Counted from the stretch's first letter, positions 7,993-57,267 are shown. The stretch is DNA of 64,000 nt from Coleofasciculus sp. B1-GNL1-01 (GCA_040220235.1 JAVJTO010000034.1), one strand, 5' to 3'. Made by a program: numbers and translations. The notes: generated by a model not told the origin, from the letters alone.

Positions 7993-8886
7993 ATGAGTGG
8001 AACTGTAACACCATCAAAACCAGAAATTAATTGGCAACCCGACGTGGTAAGTCAAGTCCCTGTCAGCGATAAGGCGGGTGTCGGTGAATTTGTCCAAGAA
8101 ACCTTGGCACTCACTAAACGCCTGTTTATCCAACTGCAACGACGCCCCTCTACCTTAATTGCTGGCGTAATTCAACCATTGATGTGGCTAATTCTATTTG
8201 GGGCGTTATTTCAAAATGCACCAAAAGGACTCTTTGGCGAAAGCTTATCCTATGCCCAATTCCTGAGTGCAGGTGTAATTGTATTTACCGCCTTCGCAGG
8301 TGCGCTGAATTCTGGCTTACCCGTGATGTTTGACCGGGAATTTGGCTTTCTGAATCGCTTACTGGTTGCACCTCTGGCGTCTCGCTTCTCCATTGTCGCC
8401 GCATCCGCTATCTATATCGTCGCCCTCAGCTTTATCCAAGCCGTCGTGATTGTCGCCGCTAGTGCAGTTATGGGTGCGGGTTTTCCTAATATAGCCGGAC
8501 TGGGTGCGATCGCGCTGATTGTTTTCTTGCTGGTAATCGGGATGACAGCATTAAGTTTGGGACTCGCCTTTGTGCTTCCGGGTCATATTGAACTCATTGC
8601 CGTCATTTTTGTCACCAACTTACCCCTGTTATTTGCCAGCACTGCCCTAGCGCCGCTATCCTTTATGCCAAGATGGTTACAATTTGTCGCCAGTCTCAAT
8701 CCCTTAAGTTATGCAATTGAACCGATTCGCTATCTCTACCTCCATGGAGACTGGTCTTTAGGTAGTGTTGTCATGGAAGCACCTTGGGCTTCAATTACAT
8801 TTGGTGGGGCTGTTTTAGTCTTGTTTGGCTTTGCTACTGTCGCCTTAGTTCTGATTAGTCCATTGCTGCGCCGTCGATTTGCCTAA
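7993..8886 (+). CDS. ABC-2 type permease (Ycf38-like)
   Basis: Six hydrophobic segments, DREFGFLNRLLVAP, NPLSYA; follows the ATPase gene. Confidence 0.9.
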   Translation: MSGTVTPSKPEINWQPDVVSQVPVSDKAGVGEFVQETLALTKRLFIQLQRRPSTLIAGVIQPLMWLILFGALFQNAPKGLFGESLSYAQFLSAGVIVFTAFAGALNSGLPVMFDREFGFLNRLLVAPLASRFSIVAASAIYIVALSFIQAVVIVAASAVMGAGFPNIAGLGAIALIVFLLVIGMTALSLGLAFVLPGHIELIAVIFVTNLPLLFASTALAPLSFMPRWLQFVASLNPLSYAIEPIRYLYLHGDWSLGSVVMEAPWASITFGGAVLVLFGFATVALVLISPLLRRRFA

Positions 8887-47998: not shown

Positions 47999-48208
47999 AT
48001 GTTGATTGCTATTTTAATATTCGATATTGCTCTAGTTGCTTGGTCACTGCACTTAATGCAACAGGCATTTGACACACGAGAGTTTTCCTTTATGCTGGCT
48101 GGCACTTTAGTGGCGATGTCGGCGGCTGCCATGTTAGTCGTGTATTTCTTGATGGACAGCTATTTGGGCTACTTGAGTCGGATTGCGGCGGTTTCGGGTT
48201 CGTTTTAG
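47999..48208 (+). CDS. Small two-TM hypothetical protein
   Basis: 69 aa with two hydrophobic helices. Confidence 0.6.
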   Translation: MLIAILIFDIALVAWSLHLMQQAFDTREFSFMLAGTLVAMSAAAMLVVYFLMDSYLGYLSRIAAVSGSF

Positions 48209-48308
48209 TCAGGCTTAGGGTTTCATAATTCAATGATCTCTGACGAGGCAATAATTTAATCAGACTTGACGAAAGGACAGAATCAAGGCATGATGGAAGA
48301 TGCTGCAC

Positions 48309-48381
48309 GGGGCTATAGCTCAGCTGGTAGAGCACCTCAATGGCATTGAGGGGGTCAGCGGTTCGAGTCCGCTTAGCTCCA
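48309..48381 (+). tRNA. tRNA-Ala(GGC)
   Basis: GGGGCTA...TAGCTCC-A acceptor with G3:U70; anticodon arm CCTCA-ATGGCAT-TGAGG; GGTTCGAGTCC T-loop; no encoded CCA. Confidence 0.96.
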
Positions 48382-48555
48382 TTAACACAGAATTAAGAGT
48401 TGCTGAATAACTCTTATGGTGATAACTCTTAGGGTGAGGTTAGGAAATTGTTCACAGGGAAGAGGGAACAGTTTTCATAATTTCAAAAACGGCATTCATC
48501 AAAAACCTCGTGAGACTCCACCCTCAGCGAAGCAGGGTGGAGAGGGATAGAGGAG

Positions 48556-49722
48556 TCAAACCGCGCCGCTCGATGCGGTTAGGTTTGACAATCCAACTGA
48601 AGGCGCGACAATTAATCCTGTGCTTCGCTGCAACAATCGGACTTTTTTAGCCGTAAACTGCCCAAGTCGCTTCCAGTTAGCATCACTAACCGAAATCGCT
48701 TGATCAGTATCACCAGAACACCAACCAACATAGGACTTCCCGGCTTTTTCAGCGATAACCTTATCACCCTTGCTGAACCCGTGACGAGTAACAGTGCCAC
48801 CGTACTTACGCCGCTTTCCACCTTTAGACGGGACACATAAATGCAACTGCCTACGACTGATTGGAGGTCTGCGGATTATCGTAAATGGCGCGGGTGTAAT
48901 CTGAACATCACCTCTCCAGTCACCGTGCTTAGTATGATCAGAATGCCATTCGCGCCATTGAATGAACTCGAAAGCTGCTAGAATTACACCGTCAACAGCA
49001 TGGGTCGCAGGTGTAGAGCAAGCTTTATTCTTCTTATCCTTGGGTAGTCCCAGCCACTTTCTGAGTTGACTGGTTCCATTGCCGTCTCGCTGCCATCCCT
49101 TGTGGGTTGTAACTGGAGCTAATTCAGATAACCAAGTCAGCATTTGTCCTTGTCCCACCATGACCGGGGAGAAGCCAACGCCGGATCGTGCTAATTTTCT
49201 TCCGCTAGTCCTATCTACGTCAGCCATGACTAGCTCGTAGTGAATAGCACTAATCGGAAATAGTTTGCACAGTTCTTTGACTACTCGTAACTCCAACTGC
49301 CTGTTGGCTCGAATAGAGGGAGGTAGTTTACCCTGTTTACGGTTATTGAATCTTCTCTGACGATGACAACGTTCAGGATAAGTCAGCTTCCGATTAATTC
49401 GTCTACCTCGCCTTGCACGACGCATAATTCGCCGTAACTCCATCCGCTCCTTAATTGTCTTAAATGGTAAGACTAAATGAGCCATCCAGAGGGTAGCGAA
49501 ACTCGATTGAACTCCAATCCCTGAATAGCTTTTGCCAGGATCTATTCCTAGAGCTATAGGTTGGGTATTTTCTTCTGTCTCGAACGTTAACTCGATGGCG
49601 AAGCCTTCTAAATCGTTGTATAAGATTTTGGCTTTACCCTCCTTTAGCCAACGCCTAGCGCGGCTGGGTTTTGTTGGCATTAAGGGCTTGCCTGATTTTG
49701 ATAGAACTGGTACTCGTAGCAT
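48556..49722 (-). CDS. isrB: IsrB (RRXRR/PLMP-domain RNA-guided nickase), 388 aa
   Basis: PLMP motif GKPLMPTKPSRARR, RuvC-I GIDPG, bridge helix RRIMRRARR, RuvC-II HYE, RuvC-III THAVD; no HNH between II and III. Confidence 0.88.
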   Translation of the reverse strand: MLRVPVLSKSGKPLMPTKPSRARRWLKEGKAKILYNDLEGFAIELTFETEENTQPIALGIDPGKSYSGIGVQSSFATLWMAHLVLPFKTIKERMELRRIMRRARRGRRINRKLTYPERCHRQRRFNNRKQGKLPPSIRANRQLELRVVKELCKLFPISAIHYELVMADVDRTSGRKLARSGVGFSPVMVGQGQMLTWLSELAPVTTHKGWQRDGNGTSQLRKWLGLPKDKKNKACSTPATHAVDGVILAAFEFIQWREWHSDHTKHGDWRGDVQITPAPFTIIRRPPISRRQLHLCVPSKGGKRRKYGGTVTRHGFSKGDKVIAEKAGKSYVGWCSGDTDQAISVSDANWKRLGQFTAKKVRLLQRSTGLIVAPSVGLSNLTASSGAV

Positions 49723-49734
49723 GGAGATAATCCT

Positions 49735-49964
49735 CACGAGTGAAAGTGTTTACATTGAGCGAAGTCGAAATGTAGTCCCTTCCCGCCATCTCGGTTAAGA
49801 TGTCTTGTCTAACAACAGCCCGACAAAAGGCTTTAGATTTGATCCGGACTAGGGAAGTATCCGGGTGTCTGTGCCAAACCGAGACTCAATGCGGTATTCA
49901 ACGGTTTAAATTGCCGTTTGTCCGGCAATCCCCAACCTCAACGAAGTAGGTTGGGGTTGTTGAA
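49735..49964 (-). ncRNA. omegaRNA scaffold of isrB copy 1
   Basis: ~230 nt conserved with copy 2, with compensatory stem changes; TTCCCTAG loop and complementary downstream GGGAAGGG. Confidence 0.8.
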
Positions 49965-50127
49965 TTTTATCGTATCAAGGCTTATTTTGGGTATTTTATA
50001 AACCTTTAATTGTTCTGGAAACCTTTATTTTTCAGGGTTTTGCGAGTTTTCCAGCCCGCTCAATTGGGGGTGTTGGTGACGCGATCGCCGGACGACTCAT
50101 CATGAGTGATTACAATTGATGTGATCA

Positions 50128-50370
50128 TTGAAAGTCAACCCAACAGCCATGAATGCAACTGAACAAGCTCCTCTAGACGAACAAACCTTGAGCCGATGCT
50201 GTTTGGCACCACTATTTGCTGACATCATGTGTAAGGGTCAGATCAGTTTGTCTGACTGGCGTGAATTGATGACAGCGCCTTGGGATAATTCTTTCACAAG
50301 TAATGATGAAGCTATCTTAATGCGGCTGATCTATGGGGTGCATCGTGGACTCGTGAAAGTTGTTGATTGA
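50128..50370 (+). CDS. Small hypothetical protein
   Basis: ORF with RLIYGVHRGLVKVV C-terminus; start uncertain. Confidence 0.55.
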   Translation: MKVNPTAMNATEQAPLDEQTLSRCCLAPLFADIMCKGQISLSDWRELMTAPWDNSFTSNDEAILMRLIYGVHRGLVKVVD

Positions 50371-50460
50371 TGAACCCCGAAGTATGACGAATGACGTAGC
50401 TTGCTTCTCAAGGGAGCGAGTATGACGATCTCCACCTTTAACTTTAATTGTGTCCACCTA

Positions 50461-51117
50461 TCATAAATTTCGTTTGGCTTCCTGAGCCACTTGCTCAACC
50501 GAGTCATTGGCTAACGCTTCTAAGGCGGCTCGAGCCTCTGAAGTATCGAAGGGCTTGAGCGCCTGGGCGACTCGGTAACGCACTTGCCAGTCAGAGTCGG
50601 TGGCAAAGGGAACTAATAGTGACACCGCGCGGGGATCACCCAGTTCTCCTAATGAACTAATCGCGGCGGTTTGAATCAAGCTGGTTTCGGAGGAAAGTGC
50701 TTCTTCTAAAAGGGGAAACGCACGCGGATCAGCGAGTTCGCCTAATGCCGCAACAATACTAAACTGTAATAACCATTCCGATGATTGGTGGTATAACTGT
50801 TTCATCTCCTCAAACGCCTCCGTCATCTTCAGGGCACCCAAAGCGTCAGCGGCGGCGGCTTGGACATCGGGTTCTGAGTCGTTCAAAAGGCGATCGCGCA
50901 ACAGGGTTAAGGTGCGTGATAAATCCTGATCCCCAAGGGTATCAAGCTGGCTAACGGCGGCGTACCGAACTCGAGCATTGGCGTCAGTCACAATCGGCTG
51001 GATTAATTCATAAGCTATCGATGGTTCTAGCTGGCGTAGTAGATTTACCCCACTCAGGCGGTTGCCAAAGTCCTCGGAACTCAGCAACTGTTGAACAGAC
51101 TCACGAGAAACAGTCAT
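50461..51117 (-). CDS. nblB: Phycobilisome degradation HEAT-repeat protein NblB-like
   Basis: SEDFGNRLSGVNLLR, RVRYAAVSQL, DVQAAAADALGAL, DWQVRYRVAQAL. Confidence 0.8.
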   Translation of the reverse strand: MTVSRESVQQLLSSEDFGNRLSGVNLLRQLEPSIAYELIQPIVTDANARVRYAAVSQLDTLGDQDLSRTLTLLRDRLLNDSEPDVQAAAADALGALKMTEAFEEMKQLYHQSSEWLLQFSIVAALGELADPRAFPLLEEALSSETSLIQTAAISSLGELGDPRAVSLLVPFATDSDWQVRYRVAQALKPFDTSEARAALEALANDSVEQVAQEAKRNL

Positions 51118-51173
51118 TTGTAACGTATTAAGTAATAAGTAATCGGACAAAATTAAAATTGACGGTGGGTTGA

Positions 51174-51644
51174 TTATGACTCGTCCAGTTCAGCAATCAT
51201 TGCCCGTACAATATCTCCTGCCGTGAGGACACCAATCACTTTTCCTTGGTTGTCAGTCACCGCTAGACGGCGCAGGGATTTGTCCTGCATCAGTTTCGCG
51301 GCTTTGCGTAAGGGTTGATCTGGCTTGACAACTACGGGTGCGTGGGTCATAACTTCGCCAACGGTTTGCCCTAGAGCCTTGTGTAGTTCTTCTTCATACC
51401 GGGCTGGGTTTTCTAGATAAATCACACTGTCTAGAAATACGATGTAAACTGGGGGTTCGACTCCTGTCTGTTGCCACAATAAATCTGTTTCTGAAATAAT
51501 GCCCACCAATTTGCCGACATCATTAACCACCAGCAAACCACTGATCCGTCGTTCGGCAAGAATTTTCATCGCCTCTCTGATGGGCGTTTGGGGGGTAACC
51601 GCGATCGGGTCACGGCTCATGACTTCGGCAACGGTTTTGGGCAT
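51174..51644 (-). CDS. CBS-domain protein
   Basis: TVAEVMS, GIISETDL, TVGEVMT, GVLTAGDI. Confidence 0.9.
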   Translation of the reverse strand: MPKTVAEVMSRDPIAVTPQTPIREAMKILAERRISGLLVVNDVGKLVGIISETDLLWQQTGVEPPVYIVFLDSVIYLENPARYEEELHKALGQTVGEVMTHAPVVVKPDQPLRKAAKLMQDKSLRRLAVTDNQGKVIGVLTAGDIVRAMIAELDES

Positions 51645-51829
51645 ACTCAGGCTTGGTATCTTCAAAGGAATTACTCATCTTATTGTAGGGGTTTCGGGAA
51701 TGATGGGGATTAATTTCTCTCGAATGGGTAACTCTTAACCTGGAACAGGGAACGGGACAAGGGATTGAGGGTTTTTACAATTCTTAACTCCGCCCGACAG
51801 AATTGATAGTCAGGGACTTAGGGAGAGGG

Positions 51830-52204
51830 ATGAAATTTCACTTGCATACGGCTTGGGTTACCATTGCGGCTACGAATATCGAGCCACTGGTTGAATTTTA
51901 TAGTCAATTACTCGCTGAATCTCCCCATTGCCATAGTTCCAATACCTATGCTGAGTTTCAGCTACCTGGATTGCGACTCGGATTATTTAAGCCCAGAGAT
52001 AATCATCGACAGGAATTTGAGCAGTCTGAGCAGAGTGGGTTGAGTTTGTGTTTAGACGTTGATGACTTAGACGCCGCGATCGCACTGTTGAGCAACATGG
52101 GATATCCGCCACCGGGCGAAATCATCGTCGCGTCCCACGGGCGGGAAATCTACGCCTATGACCCCAACGGCAATCGCTTAATTTTACACCAACCGCCGCC
52201 CTAA
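51830..52204 (+). CDS. VOC/glyoxalase family protein
   Basis: EFYSQLL, LDVDDLDAAI, YAYDPNGNRLIL. Confidence 0.85.
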   Translation: MKFHLHTAWVTIAATNIEPLVEFYSQLLAESPHCHSSNTYAEFQLPGLRLGLFKPRDNHRQEFEQSEQSGLSLCLDVDDLDAAIALLSNMGYPPPGEIIVASHGREIYAYDPNGNRLILHQPPP

Positions 52205-52521
52205 CTAATCGCCACGTCATAAGCAACATTGGCAAAGGCATAGACGCTATAGAGGAGCAAAACCGTAATCGCGACAACCATAACCAAACGCGGACGCGGT
52301 GACGGGACAAATGCTTCCCTAACCCACATGGATGCGGCTGCACCAATCGCGAAGCTAGAACTGAGGACAAGGTATTGCCAGTCCGGTTGAAAGACCCAAT
52401 TTAAGCCCAAAGCCAGAGTTAACAATACCATTAAATGTTCGATTGACTCCGGTGGATTTTGTTGGGTGGAAAGCACCAGCGTGCGCCAACAGAATTGTAA
52501 ATGTCTCGTGAAAAAACTCAT
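52201..52521 (-). CDS. Small membrane hypothetical protein
   Basis: Three hydrophobic segments; its ATG abuts the end of isrB element copy 2. Confidence 0.65.
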   Translation of the reverse strand: MSFFTRHLQFCWRTLVLSTQQNPPESIEHLMVLLTLALGLNWVFQPDWQYLVLSSSFAIGAAASMWVREAFVPSPRPRLVMVVAITVLLLYSVYAFANVAYDVAIS

Positions 52522-52575
52522 CGTATTTCGCGTGAGACTCCACCCTCAGCGAAGCAGGGTGGAGAGGGATAGAGG

Positions 52576-53541
52576 TCAAATCGACCCTTTCAATAAGGGG
52601 AGATTTGACAATCCAGTTGAAGGCACGACGATTAACCCCGTGCTTCGCTGCAACAATTGGACTTTGGATGCAGTGAACTGTCCCAACCGTTTCCAGTTGG
52701 CGTCACTGACCGAAACTTGTCTCTCGGTGTCTCCAGAACACCAACCGACGTAAGTCTTCCCAGCTTTTTCGGCTATAACTTTGTCACCTTTGCTAAACAT
52801 AAGGCGGGTAACTGTGCCGCCATACTTGCGCCGCTTACCTCCTTTAGAAGGGACACATAAATGTAACTGTCTACGGCTAATTGGCGGTCTACGGATTACC
52901 GCAAATGGTGCAGGTGTGATTTGAACATAACCACTCCAGTCGCCATGTTTGGCATTATCAGAGTGCCATTCCTGCCATCGGGTAAACTCAAACGCGGCTA
53001 AGGTTACACCGTCAACAGCGTGAGTTGCTGGAGTTTGATTAGCTTTGTTCTTTTTGTCCTTAGCTAATCCTAGCCATTGTCTAAGCTGACTGGTTCCGTT
53101 ACCATCCCGTTGCCACCCCTTGTGGGTAACAACAGGAGCTAACTTAGATAGCCAGTTGAGCATCTGTCGTTGTCCTACCATAACTGGAGAGAATCCAATA
53201 CCAGACCGAGCCGATTTACGACCACTGGTTTTATCTACGTCAGCCATGACCAACTCATAATGAATGGCACTAATCGGGAACAGCTTAAACAGTTCTTTGA
53301 CTACCCGTAACTCTAGCTGCTTATTGGCTCGAATTGACGGTGGGAGTTTGCCTTGCCTGCGATTATCAAACCGAGCTTGACGATGACAGCGTTTAGAGTA
53401 AGGCAGCTTCCGGTTAATCCGTCTCCCCCGTCTGGCTCGACGCATGACCCGCCGTAATTTCATCCGTTCCTTAACCGTCTTGAACGGTAGAACCAGATGT
53501 CCCATCCAAAGGGTAAAGAGACTCGATTGAACCCCAATCCC
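52576..53541 (-). CDS. isrB: IsrB copy 2, exon 2 (321 aa: GIGVQSS...LLKGSI)
   Basis: Collinear with copy 1 from GIGVQSS onward; HYE and THAVD intact. Confidence 0.88.
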   Translation of the reverse strand, partial: GIGVQSSLFTLWMGHLVLPFKTVKERMKLRRVMRRARRGRRINRKLPYSKRCHRQARFDNRRQGKLPPSIRANKQLELRVVKELFKLFPISAIHYELVMADVDKTSGRKSARSGIGFSPVMVGQRQMLNWLSKLAPVVTHKGWQRDGNGTSQLRQWLGLAKDKKNKANQTPATHAVDGVTLAAFEFTRWQEWHSDNAKHGDWSGYVQITPAPFAVIRRPPISRRQLHLCVPSKGGKRRKYGGTVTRLMFSKGDKVIAEKAGKTYVGWCSGDTERQVSVSDANWKRLGQFTASKVQLLQRSTGLIVVPSTGLSNLPLLKGSI

Positions 53542-56110
53542 GCTGGAGTCGAACGGGGAATCGCTTCCCCGAACTCTCCTACAAAACCGTGCTTGAGAAT
53601 TTCTCCTCACACGGCTCCTCAAAGATTTGGCACTTGTCATGTGTACCTCGATTCCCATTGAGTGGGTTAGGGGACTAGAAAGGATGGTCATCAATCCAAT
53701 CCTCCATAGTGCTTAATTCCCGATTGGCGTGGATTATGTCGTGGCAGTGACCATGTACTAAAGCTAGATTTTCTCGCTTGTTGTTTTTATGGTTTCCATC
53801 CTTATGGTGTATTTCTGCGAGGCTGTCTGGGCTAAAGTAATGTCCGCAGTGATAGCATTTTCCGCCGTGTTGTTTGACAAGTTTTGCTATTTGTTTCTTA
53901 ACTCCAGGGTAATCTCCCTTTCGTGCGCTCCAATATACCCAATTTCCGTTATAAGGACTCTTAACGCCTTCTACTTTGATATGGCGGACAACCTTTGTGT
54001 CTGAGTGATTAATAAGGGAATATTTTCCATCCTTGGTGGTGAAGACCCAGTTCCTTTTGCCCCTGGTTCCCCATTCCCTTCGGATTCTTGTCCCTTTTTG
54101 TTTACCCTTGTGACGGCTTACTGCCCATCCTCTGAGTTGTAGGTAAGTGATGTTGTCACACTTTTGGAAGGTTTCTTTACTGCATTGTCCTCTTTGATAA
54201 TTACTCCATCCCCTGATAACTGGGTTGAGTTTGGCTATTAGCGCTTGTTTAGGCGCTGTTTTGTGACTTTGTATGATGGAGCCTATCTTTTGGGTGTGTG
54301 ACCTTACCGCTTCTTTAGATGGGGTGATGATGGTCTTAAAGCCCTGTTTGGAGACGTATTTTCCCACATTATACTGCCTGATGGTGAAGCCCAAGAAGTT
54401 GAACCCCACATTACCTTCTTCGGTTGGATTCAGTGTGTGAGAAAGTCTCGTTTTTTCAGGTTTCAATTCCAAACCTATGTCGTTTAACCATTCTGCTGTT
54501 ATCTGCTGACATCTTTGGACAGTGGCTTTATCCGGATGCAGAATAACAAAATCATCTGCATATCTGATGACCGACAATTGCTTCATTAAGTCGCGTTTGC
54601 CAAAGCCATTTCTTCCTGGAAGAGTTCCCGCAAATTGTTTTAAGCGGTTCTCCAAACCGTGGAGGGCTATGTTTGCCAGTAACGGGGATATTACCCCGCC
54701 CTGTGGAGTACCCTCAGATGTTGAACTGTAGCCTTTTTCCCTGTTGGCGTATGCGCTCCAGTCCACCACTCCCGCTTTTAACCAGGACTTAATCAAACGT
54801 CTCATGGTGGGGAATGTATTCAATTTGTTGAGCAGTGCCTCGTGGCTGATACGGTCGAAGCATTTGGCTATATCAGCATCCAGAACATATTTAGGTTTCT
54901 GGTTGATTGCTTGGAATATTGCCTCAATCGCATCATGACATGAGCGCCCTGGTCGGAAGCCGTAACTATTTGGTTCAAACTTAGCTTCCCATTCTGGCTC
55001 TAGTGCTGCTTTTGCTAGGGCTTGGGCTGCCCTATCGTCCATTGTGGGGATACCTAACGGGCGTTTCTCAGTCCTTCCGGGTTTGTCAATCCAGACCCTT
55101 CTTACTGGTTTTGCCTTGCGGTTGTTTACACGCCTCAGTTGGTTGACAAGTTCCAGGCGTTGCTTAGAGGTTAAACTTTTCACCCCGTCTACACCTGCGG
55201 TTTTCTTACCCCTGTTATCCTGAGTCACCCTACGGACGGCAAGCGTTCTAGCTGACCAAGACTTCATCAACGTTTTTTGAAGCTTGCGAACTGCCTTAAC
55301 GTCTCCACGTTGAGAGGCTTGATAGATGCGCTTTTGGAGCTTAAAGACCACCCGTTCCAGCTTGCGCCAGTCCGTGTGTTCCCATCCCACAGTCGCTTGT
55401 TGCTCTGTTTTAGGCATATACACTCACTACTAACACCTCTATCTTCCAAATCTTCGTGAGACTGTCAGCGTATCCCTGCCATTACAGCAAGGCATTAGCT
55501 TCTGTCTCAATCCCGCCTCCGTACATCATGTGGCTAGCTACCTACTTGAGTATCGACCTGCTCAAGAGATGCACGGGGGGTTACTACGTTCCTAACAGCC
55601 TTTTGATTGAATCCTTAGAGTGGTACTGTTCGCCGGGTTTATGGGAAGTGCTTGTTGGTCAATATTCGAGTTGCCAACTCCCTAACCTTGCCCCATTTTG
55701 GGGTCTCCCAGTGTATCAGTCTGATTTCACAGGTTTAAATTGACGACGATTCAGACGTACCTTTGCTTATGCTACTCATAGACTCTTGCTAGAAGGGATT
55801 CTCAAATTAGACTTCTGAGTTACCTCCACTTAACTCCCCCGCTTTATCCTCAAGGTTGCTAATTCTGAGAATAGGGGTAGCGCTTTCAGCTATGCACCTT
55901 AGCGGTAGGACTTGATATTATGAGTGTTGATTGTTCTTTTCCTCACTCCCTTACTGTCTTAGCTGTGTGGCTCGGTAAGGTTCTCACCTACAAGGCTGTT
56001 AAGTTGTCAAGGTTCTGTTATTTCTAACCCATACTGAGGGGGTTAGTAACCTTGCTCCGCGTACAATTCAAGCCGTTAGGCTGTCCATTTTGGGCGGAAA
56101 CGTATCGCAG
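53542..56110 (-). mobile_element. Group IIB intron (chloroplast-like/CL class), 2569 nt
   Basis: 5' CTGCGATACG; DV GAGCCGTGTGAGGAGAAATTCTCAAGCACGGTTT (53617-53584); DVI with bulged A 8 nt from the end; EBS1 CGAATA in a hairpin loop (55668-55663) complementary to exon end TATTCG; removal restores the isrB frame. Confidence 0.93.
53675..55423 (-). CDS. ltrA: Group II intron reverse transcriptase/maturase with HNH endonuclease
   Basis: RVT_N WRKLERVVFKLQKRIY, KTAGVDG, RPLGIP, SYGFRPGRS, GTPQGGVISPLLANI, YADD, domain X LNPVIRGWSNY, CYHC..EIHH..N..N..HGHCHD. Confidence 0.96.
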   Translation of the reverse strand: MYMPKTEQQATVGWEHTDWRKLERVVFKLQKRIYQASQRGDVKAVRKLQKTLMKSWSARTLAVRRVTQDNRGKKTAGVDGVKSLTSKQRLELVNQLRRVNNRKAKPVRRVWIDKPGRTEKRPLGIPTMDDRAAQALAKAALEPEWEAKFEPNSYGFRPGRSCHDAIEAIFQAINQKPKYVLDADIAKCFDRISHEALLNKLNTFPTMRRLIKSWLKAGVVDWSAYANREKGYSSTSEGTPQGGVISPLLANIALHGLENRLKQFAGTLPGRNGFGKRDLMKQLSVIRYADDFVILHPDKATVQRCQQITAEWLNDIGLELKPEKTRLSHTLNPTEEGNVGFNFLGFTIRQYNVGKYVSKQGFKTIITPSKEAVRSHTQKIGSIIQSHKTAPKQALIAKLNPVIRGWSNYQRGQCSKETFQKCDNITYLQLRGWAVSRHKGKQKGTRIRREWGTRGKRNWVFTTKDGKYSLINHSDTKVVRHIKVEGVKSPYNGNWVYWSARKGDYPGVKKQIAKLVKQHGGKCYHCGHYFSPDSLAEIHHKDGNHKNNKRENLALVHGHCHDIIHANRELSTMEDWIDDHPF

Positions 56111-56311
56111 CGAATAGCATTTACCAGGGTCTATACCCATGGCTATGGGTTGAGTATTCTCTTGGGTTTCAAAGGTCAATTGAATGGCAAAACATTCTAA
56201 GTCGTTATGTACTACTTTAGCTTTACCATCCCTCAACCAACGCCTAGCGCGGCTGGGTTTTGTAGGCATTAACGGTTTACCTGATTTCGATAAAACTGGT
56301 ACTCGTAACAT
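56111..56311 (-). CDS. isrB: IsrB copy 2, exon 1 (67 aa: MLRVP...GIDPGKCYS)
   Basis: PLMP domain and RuvC-I; homology with copy 1 stops exactly at the intron 5' end. Confidence 0.88.
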
Positions 56312-56319
56312 GGTGATAA

Positions 56320-56531
56320 ACCTCCGAGTAAAAGTGTGTAGTCCCTTCCCGCCATCTCAGCTAAGATGTCTTGGCTTAACAACAACCCAACAAAAGGTTT
56401 TAGAGGTAATCCGGACTAGGGAAATATCCGGATGTCTGTACCAAGCTGAGACTCTACGCGGTATTCAACGTTTAATGACGTTTGTCCGTCAATCCCTGAC
56501 TTCAAGCGATAGCTAAGTCAGGGTTGTTGAA
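56320..56531 (-). ncRNA. omegaRNA scaffold of isrB copy 2
   Basis: Homologous to 49735-49964 with covarying stems. Confidence 0.8.
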
Positions 56532-56565
56532 TAGCTAGAACTATTGATTAAGAGAAGGAATTGGG

Positions 56566-57267
56566 CTACTGTTGGTAAGGAAGATGATTGTACTCTTGCA
56601 AATAAGCCAGTGCCTCATCCGTGTTGACCTGAGGAAATTCCTCATAGAAACGGCTGACACTGAGAAAATTATCCGGTGTTTCCAGGATAACCAAGCGATC
56701 GCAAAAACGACCGAGCCTCTTGATCAGTCCGGCTGGGGCGACGGGTGTACAAATCCAGATCTGGTGAGGATGATACTCTTTCAACGTTTGAGTCGCCGCG
56801 ATTATGGTCATCCCTGTAGCAATCCCATCATCAACCAAAAGGGCTAATTTTCCTTGGGGATTAGCCTGAGGACAACCTGGGGCAAATTCAGCCAGTTGAG
56901 CTTGAGCTTTATCTTGAGCATGACGCAGGGCAGTTTGTCGCAGATTCGCCTTCAGTCGCCTCCATAGCCGTTGTTGCGCCCACAACACTTGTCCGTCTGA
57001 GGTGACAGCACCAATAGCTAATTCTGGATTTTGGGGAGTGGTAATTTTTTTAGCCACCACGATATCCAGAGGACAATTTAACTGACGAGCAATTGGTACA
57101 GCGACAGGAATACCGCCACGGGGGAGTGCATACACCACGGGTGATACTGTATCACCCGTCGTCGTTTCCAGTTCAGCAATTTGGGTGAGCAGCGCTTGAG
57201 CGAGTTCCTCACCGGCATGAGTGCGATCGCTAAATAGCGGAGCCGATGACATAGGTTCCTCCAGCAT
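56566..57267 (-). CDS. Phosphoribosyltransferase family protein
   Basis: FSDRTHAG, ALPRGGIPVA, LVDDGIATG. Confidence 0.9.
   Translation of the reverse strand: MLEEPMSSAPLFSDRTHAGEELAQALLTQIAELETTTGDTVSPVVYALPRGGIPVAVPIARQLNCPLDIVVAKKITTPQNPELAIGAVTSDGQVLWAQQRLWRRLKANLRQTALRHAQDKAQAQLAEFAPGCPQANPQGKLALLVDDGIATGMTIIAATQTLKEYHPHQIWICTPVAPAGLIKRLGRFCDRLVILETPDNFLSVSRFYEEFPQVNTDEALAYLQEYNHLPYQQ

Follow-up and report, generated by a model that had tools for sequence, protein, structure and literature searches.

Introduction

The closest described relative of the locus reported here is an intron of 2511 bp, encoding a reverse transcriptase (RT)-maturase with an HNH domain, which Kapitonov, Makarova and Koonin (2016) found at one site in two tnpB genes that are ∼60% identical, those of IS605-1_CC and IS605B-1_CC in Coleofasciculus chthonoplastes PCC 7420 (PMC4810608, Fig. 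S9). The same paper mentions ‘many other examples’ in tnpB (data not shown) and proposes that the HNH domain of IscB derived from such an intron (PMC4810608). Here we describe a group II intron within isrB, the nuclease gene of an OMEGA-type insertion sequence, in a stretch of 64,000 nt from Coleofasciculus sp. B1-GNL1-01 (the whole stretch is called the window, and coordinates are counted within it). The composite element lies on the minus strand at 52522..56531 and consists of an ISC/IsrB insertion sequence of 1441 nt and a nested intron of 2569 nt. We consider it probable, at about 0.85, that a mobile RT-maturase-HNH group II intron has retrohomed into an intact isrB, a parasite nested in a parasite.

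The published introns and this one are alike in being cyanobacterial RT-HNH introns, in sense orientation and site-specific, in the gene for a RuvC-nuclease accessory protein of the IS200/605 superfamily, and the published site, EQQ|NC, is also occupied in the genome studied here. They differ in the host, which is tnpB there and isrB (the iscB1 of those authors) here; in the insertion site, which here lies six codons past the RuvC-I Asp (Asp+6); in the intron ends, which here carry C at the first and G at the penultimate position; and in the place of the guide RNA, upstream of the intron here and at the 3′ end of the gene there. No intron in isrB or iscB was found in the accessible parts of that paper, and a literature search that covered few subscription journals found no report of a group II intron in either gene. 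As far as these sources extend, the present case adds isrB, with a new site, to the hosts of a nesting that is already known and has a precedent in print for tnpB (PMC4810608).

RmInt1 in ISRm2011-2 of Sinorhizobium meliloti, the classic example of this type of nesting, is likewise a mobile group II intron, in sense orientation within an insertion-sequence gene, in which intron stop codons make splicing necessary for the host gene and the 3′ end departs from consensus, but it belongs to class IIB3/class D, its host is an IS630-Tc1 transposase gene, and there is no guide RNA (the accessible parts of PMC4238363). In the interval 48000-57000 of the window, group II introns were the sole intron-family matches in Rfam, and the intron lies inside the open reading frame (ORF), which upholds the distinction from IStrons drawn in an earlier note on this DNA. 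The RmInt1 protein is not known to have an endonuclease domain. In an IStron, a tnpB element of the IS200/605 type is fused with a group I intron, whose ribozyme surrounds the insertion sequence, and splicing and the formation of the guide RNA are in competition. IStrons resemble the present element in placing a self-splicing intron, an OMEGA-type nuclease and a guide RNA on one transcript, but here a group II retro-element sits inside the nuclease ORF and the omegaRNA is left untouched.

The split isrB gene and its intron

Exon 1 of the split gene (56111..56311, 201 nt, 67 codons; this and all features below are on the minus strand unless stated otherwise) encodes the PLMP region and the RuvC-I Asp (Asp61) and matches Pfam RRXRR (3.9e-17, profile positions 1-62). 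Exon 2 (52576..53541, 966 nt, 321 codons plus stop) encodes RuvC-II, RuvC-III and the part that interacts with the target-adjacent motif (TAM), and matches RRXRR at 57-165; IsrB gave no HNH match. Joined by their coordinates, the exons form an open frame of 1167 nt (388 codons) free of stops and frameshifts. Because the unspliced frame stops after 95 amino acids, the IsrB protein is predicted to be obtainable only after splicing. This much of the earlier proposal that IsrB expression depends on maturase-assisted splicing holds, while a need for the maturase in that splicing is presumed.

An intron-free paralogous ISC/IsrB element lies in the window at 48500..49964 (ends set by analogy; isrB at 48556-49722), and sequence conservation between the two elements begins and ends at the borders of the composite. 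The earlier note called the paralogous gene identical to the joined exons, which is true of the length (1167 nt in both) but not of the sequence, with 84% identity in amino acids (327 of 389 aligned columns) and 77% in nucleotides (902 of 1167). The paralogous IsrB aligns over residues 2-370 with DtIsrB of Desulfovirgula thermocuniculi (8DMB, E 2.9e-45), whereas IscB chains match it at 1e-19 or weaker and only in the N-terminal third. Both copies in the window keep GIDPG, HYE and THAVD, which we take to be the catalytic RuvC-I, RuvC-II and RuvC-III motifs, as had been claimed for the D/E/H-D residues; RNA-guided nicking by the IsrB of the split copy is predicted from family membership. The ratio of nonsynonymous to synonymous divergence (dN/dS) is 0.05-0.12 between pairs of isrB genes and 0.05-0.10 for pairs that include the split copy, which is no outlier, so that the split isrB appears to be under purifying selection. 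Five close isrB copies (the one at 48556-49722 in the window, C71, C69 and C164 among them; C numbers denote contigs of this genome) are old, with pairwise dS of 0.66-2.2, and strongly purified (dN/dS 0.05-0.12), which is unusual for insertion-sequence copies in one genome.

The intron (53542..56110, CUGCG...CCAGC) is identified by its RNA domains and by its protein. Domains V and VI (53542..53619) match RF00029 at 56.4 bits (cut-off 40), with the match ending exactly at 53542, and RF04357, the plastid-type domain V, at 57.4 bits (cut-off 53); the AGC triad of domain V and the bulged branch A of domain VI, read off the Rfam alignment 8 nt from the 3′ end, adjoin the 3′ splice site. The one pointer to a IIB or chloroplast-like subclass is this likeness of domain V to plastid ndhA/ndhB introns. 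The intron-encoded protein (53675..55423, 582 amino acids) matches Pfam RVT_N, RVT_1 and GIIM (maturase domain X) and passes NCBIfam TIGR04416, the group II RT/maturase equivalog, at 330.9 bits (cut-off 300). A YADD motif is visible in its translation, as is a CxxC...HH..N...H..CH pattern. A complete ORF-bearing group II intron with YADD in its RT, as previously described from this DNA, is thus present; of the HNH domain also described, the motif can be seen, but Pfam HNH_3 scores 21.1 bits, under its cut-off of 24.8.

The ends of the intron can be placed to the base. A frame shifted by one base (GCUGCG...CCAG) would encode the same protein but was rejected, because in the related introns L033 and L067 (L numbers denote loci of related introns) the last exon base is A where the window has G, beside an unchanged CTGCGA, and because EBS1, the exon-binding sequence discussed below, pairs up to that very base. 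The intron of L033, from the same record as L067, is 88% identical to that of the window and starts and stops on the same letters, next to exon letters that are different. A first-position C and a penultimate G occur together in the introns of the window, L067, L066 and L068, with the 5′ end only recorded for L146 and L147 and the 3′ end only (CCAGC) for L069; the penultimate base is A in all of the other 24 aligned D5/D6 ends, and G is the first base of every remaining 5′ end on record. Since the first and penultimate intron bases contact each other (according to the accessible parts of PMC4238363), the paired change looks compensatory, and it provides a natural C1/G-penultimate pair for testing that contact.

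Both the RT and the ribozyme parts appear to be under purifying selection. The dN/dS of the RT is 0.12, 0.11 and 0.15 in comparison with L067, L066 and L068, and the non-coding intron is 85-89% identical in its 5′ part and 81-94% in its 3′ part, compared to 67-76% at third codon positions. The intron thus looks functional and is probably active.

Nineteen public RNA runs contain part of the stretch, and we aligned the contigs of four of them (X1-X4). One contig of the metatranscriptome X4 joins 56111 to 53541, a skip of exactly 2569 nt, at a depth of 139, with 208 nt of exon 1 without a difference and 36 nt on the other side. This joint is the predicted ligated-exon junction; the source of the contig is either spliced RNA or an intron-less allele. 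A second X4 contig (depth 202, shorter side 69 nt) joins 52521 to 56532, a skip of exactly 4010 nt, which fixes the element ends to the base and means that an empty site exists in the X4 sample. Together with the open joined frame and the end of the Rfam D5/D6 match, these joints bear out the coordinates first given for exons, intron and element. In X1-X3, which have no coverage of the exons at the window locus, we found a variant intron of 97-98% identity, in X1 and X2 within a different isrB exon 1. The variant has 56111 C>T (A at exon position -1) in X1 and X2, and 55668 G>A (U in EBS1) in X1, X2 and X3; X3 shows the latter change alone because its contigs stop at 56110, leaving the exon unseen.

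Target recognition

The exon-binding sequences (EBS) of the intron match the intron-binding sequences (IBS) of its own 5′ exon. EBS2 (AUUUA, intron positions 371-375, 55736..55740), a hypervariable 5-mer within a conserved context, pairs at 5/5 positions with IBS2 (UAAAU, exon positions -13..-9, 56119..56123), and EBS1 (CGAAUA, intron positions 443-448, 55663..55668) pairs at 6/6 with IBS1 (UAUUCG, the last six bases of exon 1, -6..-1, 56111..56116), giving 11/11. Two alternative placements of EBS2, at intron positions 133 and 334, were rejected because of an overlap or of where they lie. Across the eight introns with a known 5′ exon, in the order window, L067, L147, L068, L066, L146, L074 and L034, cognate pairing is 11, 9, 10, 8, 9, 11, 9 and 10 of 11 positions. 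The mean is 9.6 for cognate pairs and 4.4 for non-cognate pairs (sd 2.0, n=56), and high non-cognate pairing is found only among three introns that share the isrB site. EBS2 and IBS2 co-vary across the eight introns, with EBS2 fully complementary (5/5) to -13..-9 in six of them. Similarly, L067 combines EBS1 UGAAUA with IBS1 UAUUCA, a switch from C-G to U-A relative to the window intron that the variant of X1 and X2 also has. In L068, the complementarity of EBS1 to the opening six bases of the 3′ exon (GCGACU) exceeds that to the 5′ exon.

A second set of conserved bases lies farther upstream, where positions -21, -20 and -14 are G, A and G, respectively, in all seven sites of the lineage and in L074. 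The seven include two hosts that are not nucleases, the genes for an ABC-transporter ATPase (L066) and a phosphonate-binding protein (L146). In the nuclease genes these bases belong to the Asp and Gly codons of Asp-x-Gly; in the window, the GAC codon of the RuvC-I Asp occupies 56129..56131 (-21..-19 from the 5′ splice site). We infer that the intron protein reads these bases, of which the GAC codon would be part of the target. The Ll.LtrB protein reads -23, -21 and -20.

The sister isrB copies in the same genome match the EBS sequences less well. All 11 sister sites examined mismatch EBS1 of the window intron at -1, where the closest (C34p, C71, C69 and C164) have A, and the G at exon -1 of the split copy is matched by its own EBS1. 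Overall pairing is best at C24 and C9 (10/11), with 9/11 at C71. The idea of the earlier note that the intron homes to the RuvC-I site of sister copies holds in that related introns occupy this site elsewhere, but not within this genome, where no sister site has a cognate IBS1 and none of the 11 carries the intron; spread to sister copies in this genome is not supported.

Because the EBS sequences co-vary with each target, we read the data as site-specific retrohoming into the RuvC-I coding site. The intron RNA would read the target through EBS2/IBS2 and EBS1/IBS1, and the intron protein would probably read GAY..GG at -21..-14, the invariant RuvC-I Asp-x-Gly codons. Since Asp-x-Gly is common to IsrB, IscB and TnpB, relatives would land six codons past the catalytic Asp in genes of all three families, re-targeted by changes of EBS1 and EBS2. 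The intron lies in sense orientation, 201 nt downstream of the putative omegaRNA, which would be unaffected by its presence. A non-autonomous ISC/IsrB (OMEGA) element would thus serve an intron with a chloroplast-like domain V as a multi-copy, horizontally moving and conserved landing site.

Relatives and hosts of the intron

To determine in which genes related introns reside, we examined the own genome, 200 other genomes of the order and, as a second sample that overlaps the first, the 80 nearest RTs, taking one genome per species. The own genome has eight D5/D6 matches, three in isrB (the window intron and two of a second family), two in tnpB (C161 and C45), two in a ribonucleotide reductase gene (C83) and one cut by a contig end (C59). 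The second intron family splits two other isrB copies after ..SPAMVGQ and is represented by 3′ halves (C117:10325-10583 and C134:1-259) and 5′ halves (C14:3070-3207 and C74); it starts with GTGCGA and has an RT-HNH tail, and the assembly breaks inside it, so that the middle is missing. The MVGQ site lies three residues beyond the stretch that is aligned with the HNH-linker of DtIsrB; the HNH insertion of IscB follows after ∼9 aligned columns. Contig ends inside iscB (C62, C63, C145 and C154) showed no introns and are plain assembly breaks in coding sequence.

The C161 intron occupies the published tnpB site, EQQ|NC(L). At 2028 nt (C161:9961-11988) it is short; its RT ORF starts ∼125 nt after the 5′ end and the RT frame is full length, so that most of domain I seems to be deleted. 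The C45 intron (C45:6548-9094) lies inside the RuvC-III Asp codon of tnpB (..CGHFDHA|D KQAARNI), the site also used in L043 and L057; its host may be decayed, because the upstream part of tnpB is open for only 61 codons. At C83:12583-17730, two group II introns separated by 114 nt (38 codons) interrupt a gene for a class II ribonucleotide reductase, which has weak intein (Hint) matches further on.

In the first sample, matches of some kind turned up in 125 of the 200 genomes, almost always to the RT region (64-72% identity), and a full-length match (88%) was found in one genome only (G194), at the same isrB site. We kept 29 loci, of which seven are in IS200/605-superfamily genes by Pfam (isrB L033, iscB L034, tnpA L035, and tnpB L037, L040, L043 and L059), ten are in other named genes (with L047 counted only by its likeness to L044) and 12 are uncallable. 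The second sample gave 58 loci with an exon piece of at least 30 amino acids, after L124 and one masked piece had been dropped. Seventeen of these lie in IS200/605-superfamily genes: two in isrB (L067 and L074), two in iscB (L069, and L090 by its HNH part only), one in tnpA (L078) and 12 in tnpB, ten by Pfam and two (L068 and L099) by NCBIfam. Another three, L073, L079 and L114, are tnpB-like by eye and stand outside the 17. RT-HNH relatives also occur in unrelated hosts, including PdxJ, DnaX, SSB and ABC transporter genes. A 21-nt motif of the intron, used to scan metagenomes, led to only two loci.

The Asp+6 site is used in all three nuclease families. It is occupied in isrB by the introns of the window, L067 and L074 (a G-first intron with an RT identity of only 60%), in iscB-type genes by L069 and L147 (of which only the 3′ and only the 5′ junction, respectively, is seen), and in a tnpB-family gene by L068 (VDLGLNTT|A). 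The L068 intron (80% RT identity) and its host look cyanobacterial, and the contig, from an Actinomycetota metagenome-assembled genome, may be mis-binned. On the point raised by the earlier note of whether the flanks of the homologs are isrB-specific, the answer is therefore mixed: the Asp+6 site recurs in isrB, iscB and tnpB, but only 17 of 58 hosts are genes of the superfamily.

Other sites are used as well. Introns of 68-71% identity lie in iscB at YLLN|KW.R.C.YC, just before the first HNH Cys (L034:1382/3855 and L090:1920). A BLASTP comparison of the intron-protein HNH with an IscB HNH gave E 0.07 and 27% identity over 41 amino acids, which is no evidence of common origin. Three introns lie near the 3′ end of tnpB, past the RuvC-III motif (L037:1267, L040:1156 and L091:1900). 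In IS605 elements the guide RNA of TnpB is encoded near the 3′ end of tnpB, and introns in that place would have to be spliced out before the guide RNA itself is whole again.

These data extend the little-known homing of group II introns into tnpB to isrB and iscB. They suggest a simple reason, namely that the intron target includes the invariant RuvC-I Asp-x-Gly codons, so that a conserved place to land, carried from genome to genome, is present in every OMEGA nuclease family. The relatives form a natural series of re-targeted introns, in which EBS1 and EBS2 have changed and the distal exon motif is kept. Annotation pipelines would call such isrB, iscB and tnpB genes broken unless the introns are recognised.

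Alternative explanations

Several observations weigh against a mobile intron specialised for this site. The intron is single-copy in its own genome, and the sister sites are empty. Its ends, CUGCG and AGC, deviate from the consensus GUGYG...AY, and model introns are impaired by a first-position C. The specialisation of the lineage is partial, as the 17 of 58 loci indicate, and the close relatives L066 and L146 sit in transporter genes. In X4, depth over the intron is near zero, although this is not readable as absence, and the sole intron contig (depth 3) carries the other EBS1 variant; for these two reasons the X4 exon junction may come from an intron-less allele. The unusual ends, the single copy with empty sister sites and the lack of intron RNA of the window variant in X4 could also mean that the intron no longer splices, for instance owing to C1, and that this isrB is a disrupted pseudogene which still looks open. 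We regard such a dead end as very unlikely, since the C1/G-penultimate combination is kept in diverged, differently targeted copies with a purified RT, EBS and IBS pair at 11/11 with the change at exon -1 matched by EBS1, the 388-codon joined frame has no stop or frameshift at a dN/dS of 0.05-0.10, and the exact junction is present in a contig from an RNA library. An intron that splices, but poorly, might instead act as a brake, limiting the supply of IsrB and the spread of the insertion sequence, as has been proposed for RmInt1 in ISRm2011-2, where a non-consensus 3′ end goes with inefficient exon ligation (accessible parts of PMC4238363). The non-consensus ends of the window intron, and the one composite copy beside at least four intact intron-free relatives, would fit. 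We think this unlikely, as the link to splicing efficiency is drawn by analogy with RmInt1 and IsrB is not the transposase, so that a shortage of it would affect how the element is retained or homes and not transposition itself, an argument that follows the model reported by Meers et al.

The earlier note had also speculated that an omegaRNA-guided IsrB nick provides a primer or entry point for the intron RT, making one nick-and-copy device. The two proteins are indeed encoded together on the same strand, and a weak consensus scan of 56531-52522 found no minus-strand terminator-like site (the scan, which also gave two promoter-like sites where 4.8 are expected, is uninformative). The RT has its own HNH-type motif, however, as do relatives in unrelated hosts; the one match of the putative guide-side flank in the 8.66-Mb genome is the site that the element already occupies; and the sequences targeted by IsrB (flank plus ATGA) and by the intron (RuvC-I codons) bear no relation to each other. 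The lineage of this intron has no need of IsrB, since it also occurs in tnpB, iscB and transporter genes. We found no support for any functional link between IsrB nicking and the RT, nor for a natural nickase-RT editing device, and consider the coupling extremely improbable.

Compared to these alternatives, retrohoming of a functional intron into an intact isrB accounts best for the locus. A broader version, which we hold unlikely, is that the RT-HNH introns of this clade use the RuvC nucleases of IS200/605 elements as a main niche, anchored on the Asp codon, and that the copies at the HNH-linker boundary (isrB MVGQ| in C14/C74 and C117/C134; iscB YLLN|KW..C..C in L034 and L090) are living examples of the proposed event by which IscB, and hence Cas9, gained its HNH domain.

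The insertion sequence and its surroundings

The left end of the element includes a putative omegaRNA scaffold of 220 nt (56312..56531), which we examined in an alignment of 14 isrB copies, 13 from the own genome and one from G194. RNAalifold applied to the 220 nt upstream of the ATG gave 26 consensus pairs, 20 of them with compensatory changes, which form a covarying left-end hairpin (about 56494-56523), a 9-bp long-range helix and an inner hairpin. Since Rfam at E≤1 over 48000-57000 matched no omegaRNA or HEARO family, the identification comes from covariation; that this RNA is an omegaRNA is well supported, not proven. In X4, depth peaks over it at 8179 (56342-56480), compared to 180-580 in the exons, although contig depth is a weak measure to which paralogs may add. 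In the IsrB layout the guide is located at the 5′ end of the omegaRNA (accessible parts of PMC9581776), and the guide would accordingly be read out from the flank beyond the left end (56532..56551), which is unconserved between copies. Adaptor and nexus pseudoknots have been described for IsrB omegaRNAs (PMC9581776). A 16-mer of the left-end flank has one exact match in the 8.66-Mb genome, namely the occupied flank itself.

The right end (52522..52575, 54 nt past the stop codon) contains a GC-rich palindrome and is near-identical to that of the paralog and to the terminus of ISC1-2_CC shown in the supplementary material of PMC4810608. Both the split and the intron-free copies have ATGA directly behind this end (52518..52521 in the former), which is a candidate insertion target and NTGA-type TAM and fits the NTGA/TTGA TAM given for DtIsrB in the accessible parts of PMC9581776. 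The empty-site joint at 52521/56532 has no duplicated letters, and the element thus has the hairpin-bearing ends, the lack of target duplication and the adjoining 4-nt motif of an IsrB/ISC1 element. The upstream RNA and both ends are retained, as first noted. Because both ends are intact and the genome has 13 Y1_Tnp (TnpA) matches, TnpA acting in trans could still mobilise the 4-kb composite. The ATG within 52518-52521 is the start of a 106-codon ORF (52521-52201); the element sits exactly before it and separates it from its upstream region.

A hairpin of 5-6 bp (ACUCG...CGAGU, 56294-56325) encloses the Shine-Dalgarno sequence and the AUG of isrB, and is found at the same place in the 13 other isrB copies. 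One U-A pair is switched to A-U between two isrB subfamilies through a synonymous Arg codon; the split is 7 versus 7 sequences, so it counts as one event. The hairpin may gate translation, or it may form the final stem of the omegaRNA. Three isrB copies have in their upstream RNA a palindromic insert of ∼22 nt (core GACGCGCC ATGG CGCGTC), at alignment columns 70-90 in C24 and C6 and at 190-210 in C46; it resembles a very small mobile palindrome. A tRNA gene (48309-48381, 65 bits) lies on the plus strand, ∼115 nt past the right end of the intron-free paralog.

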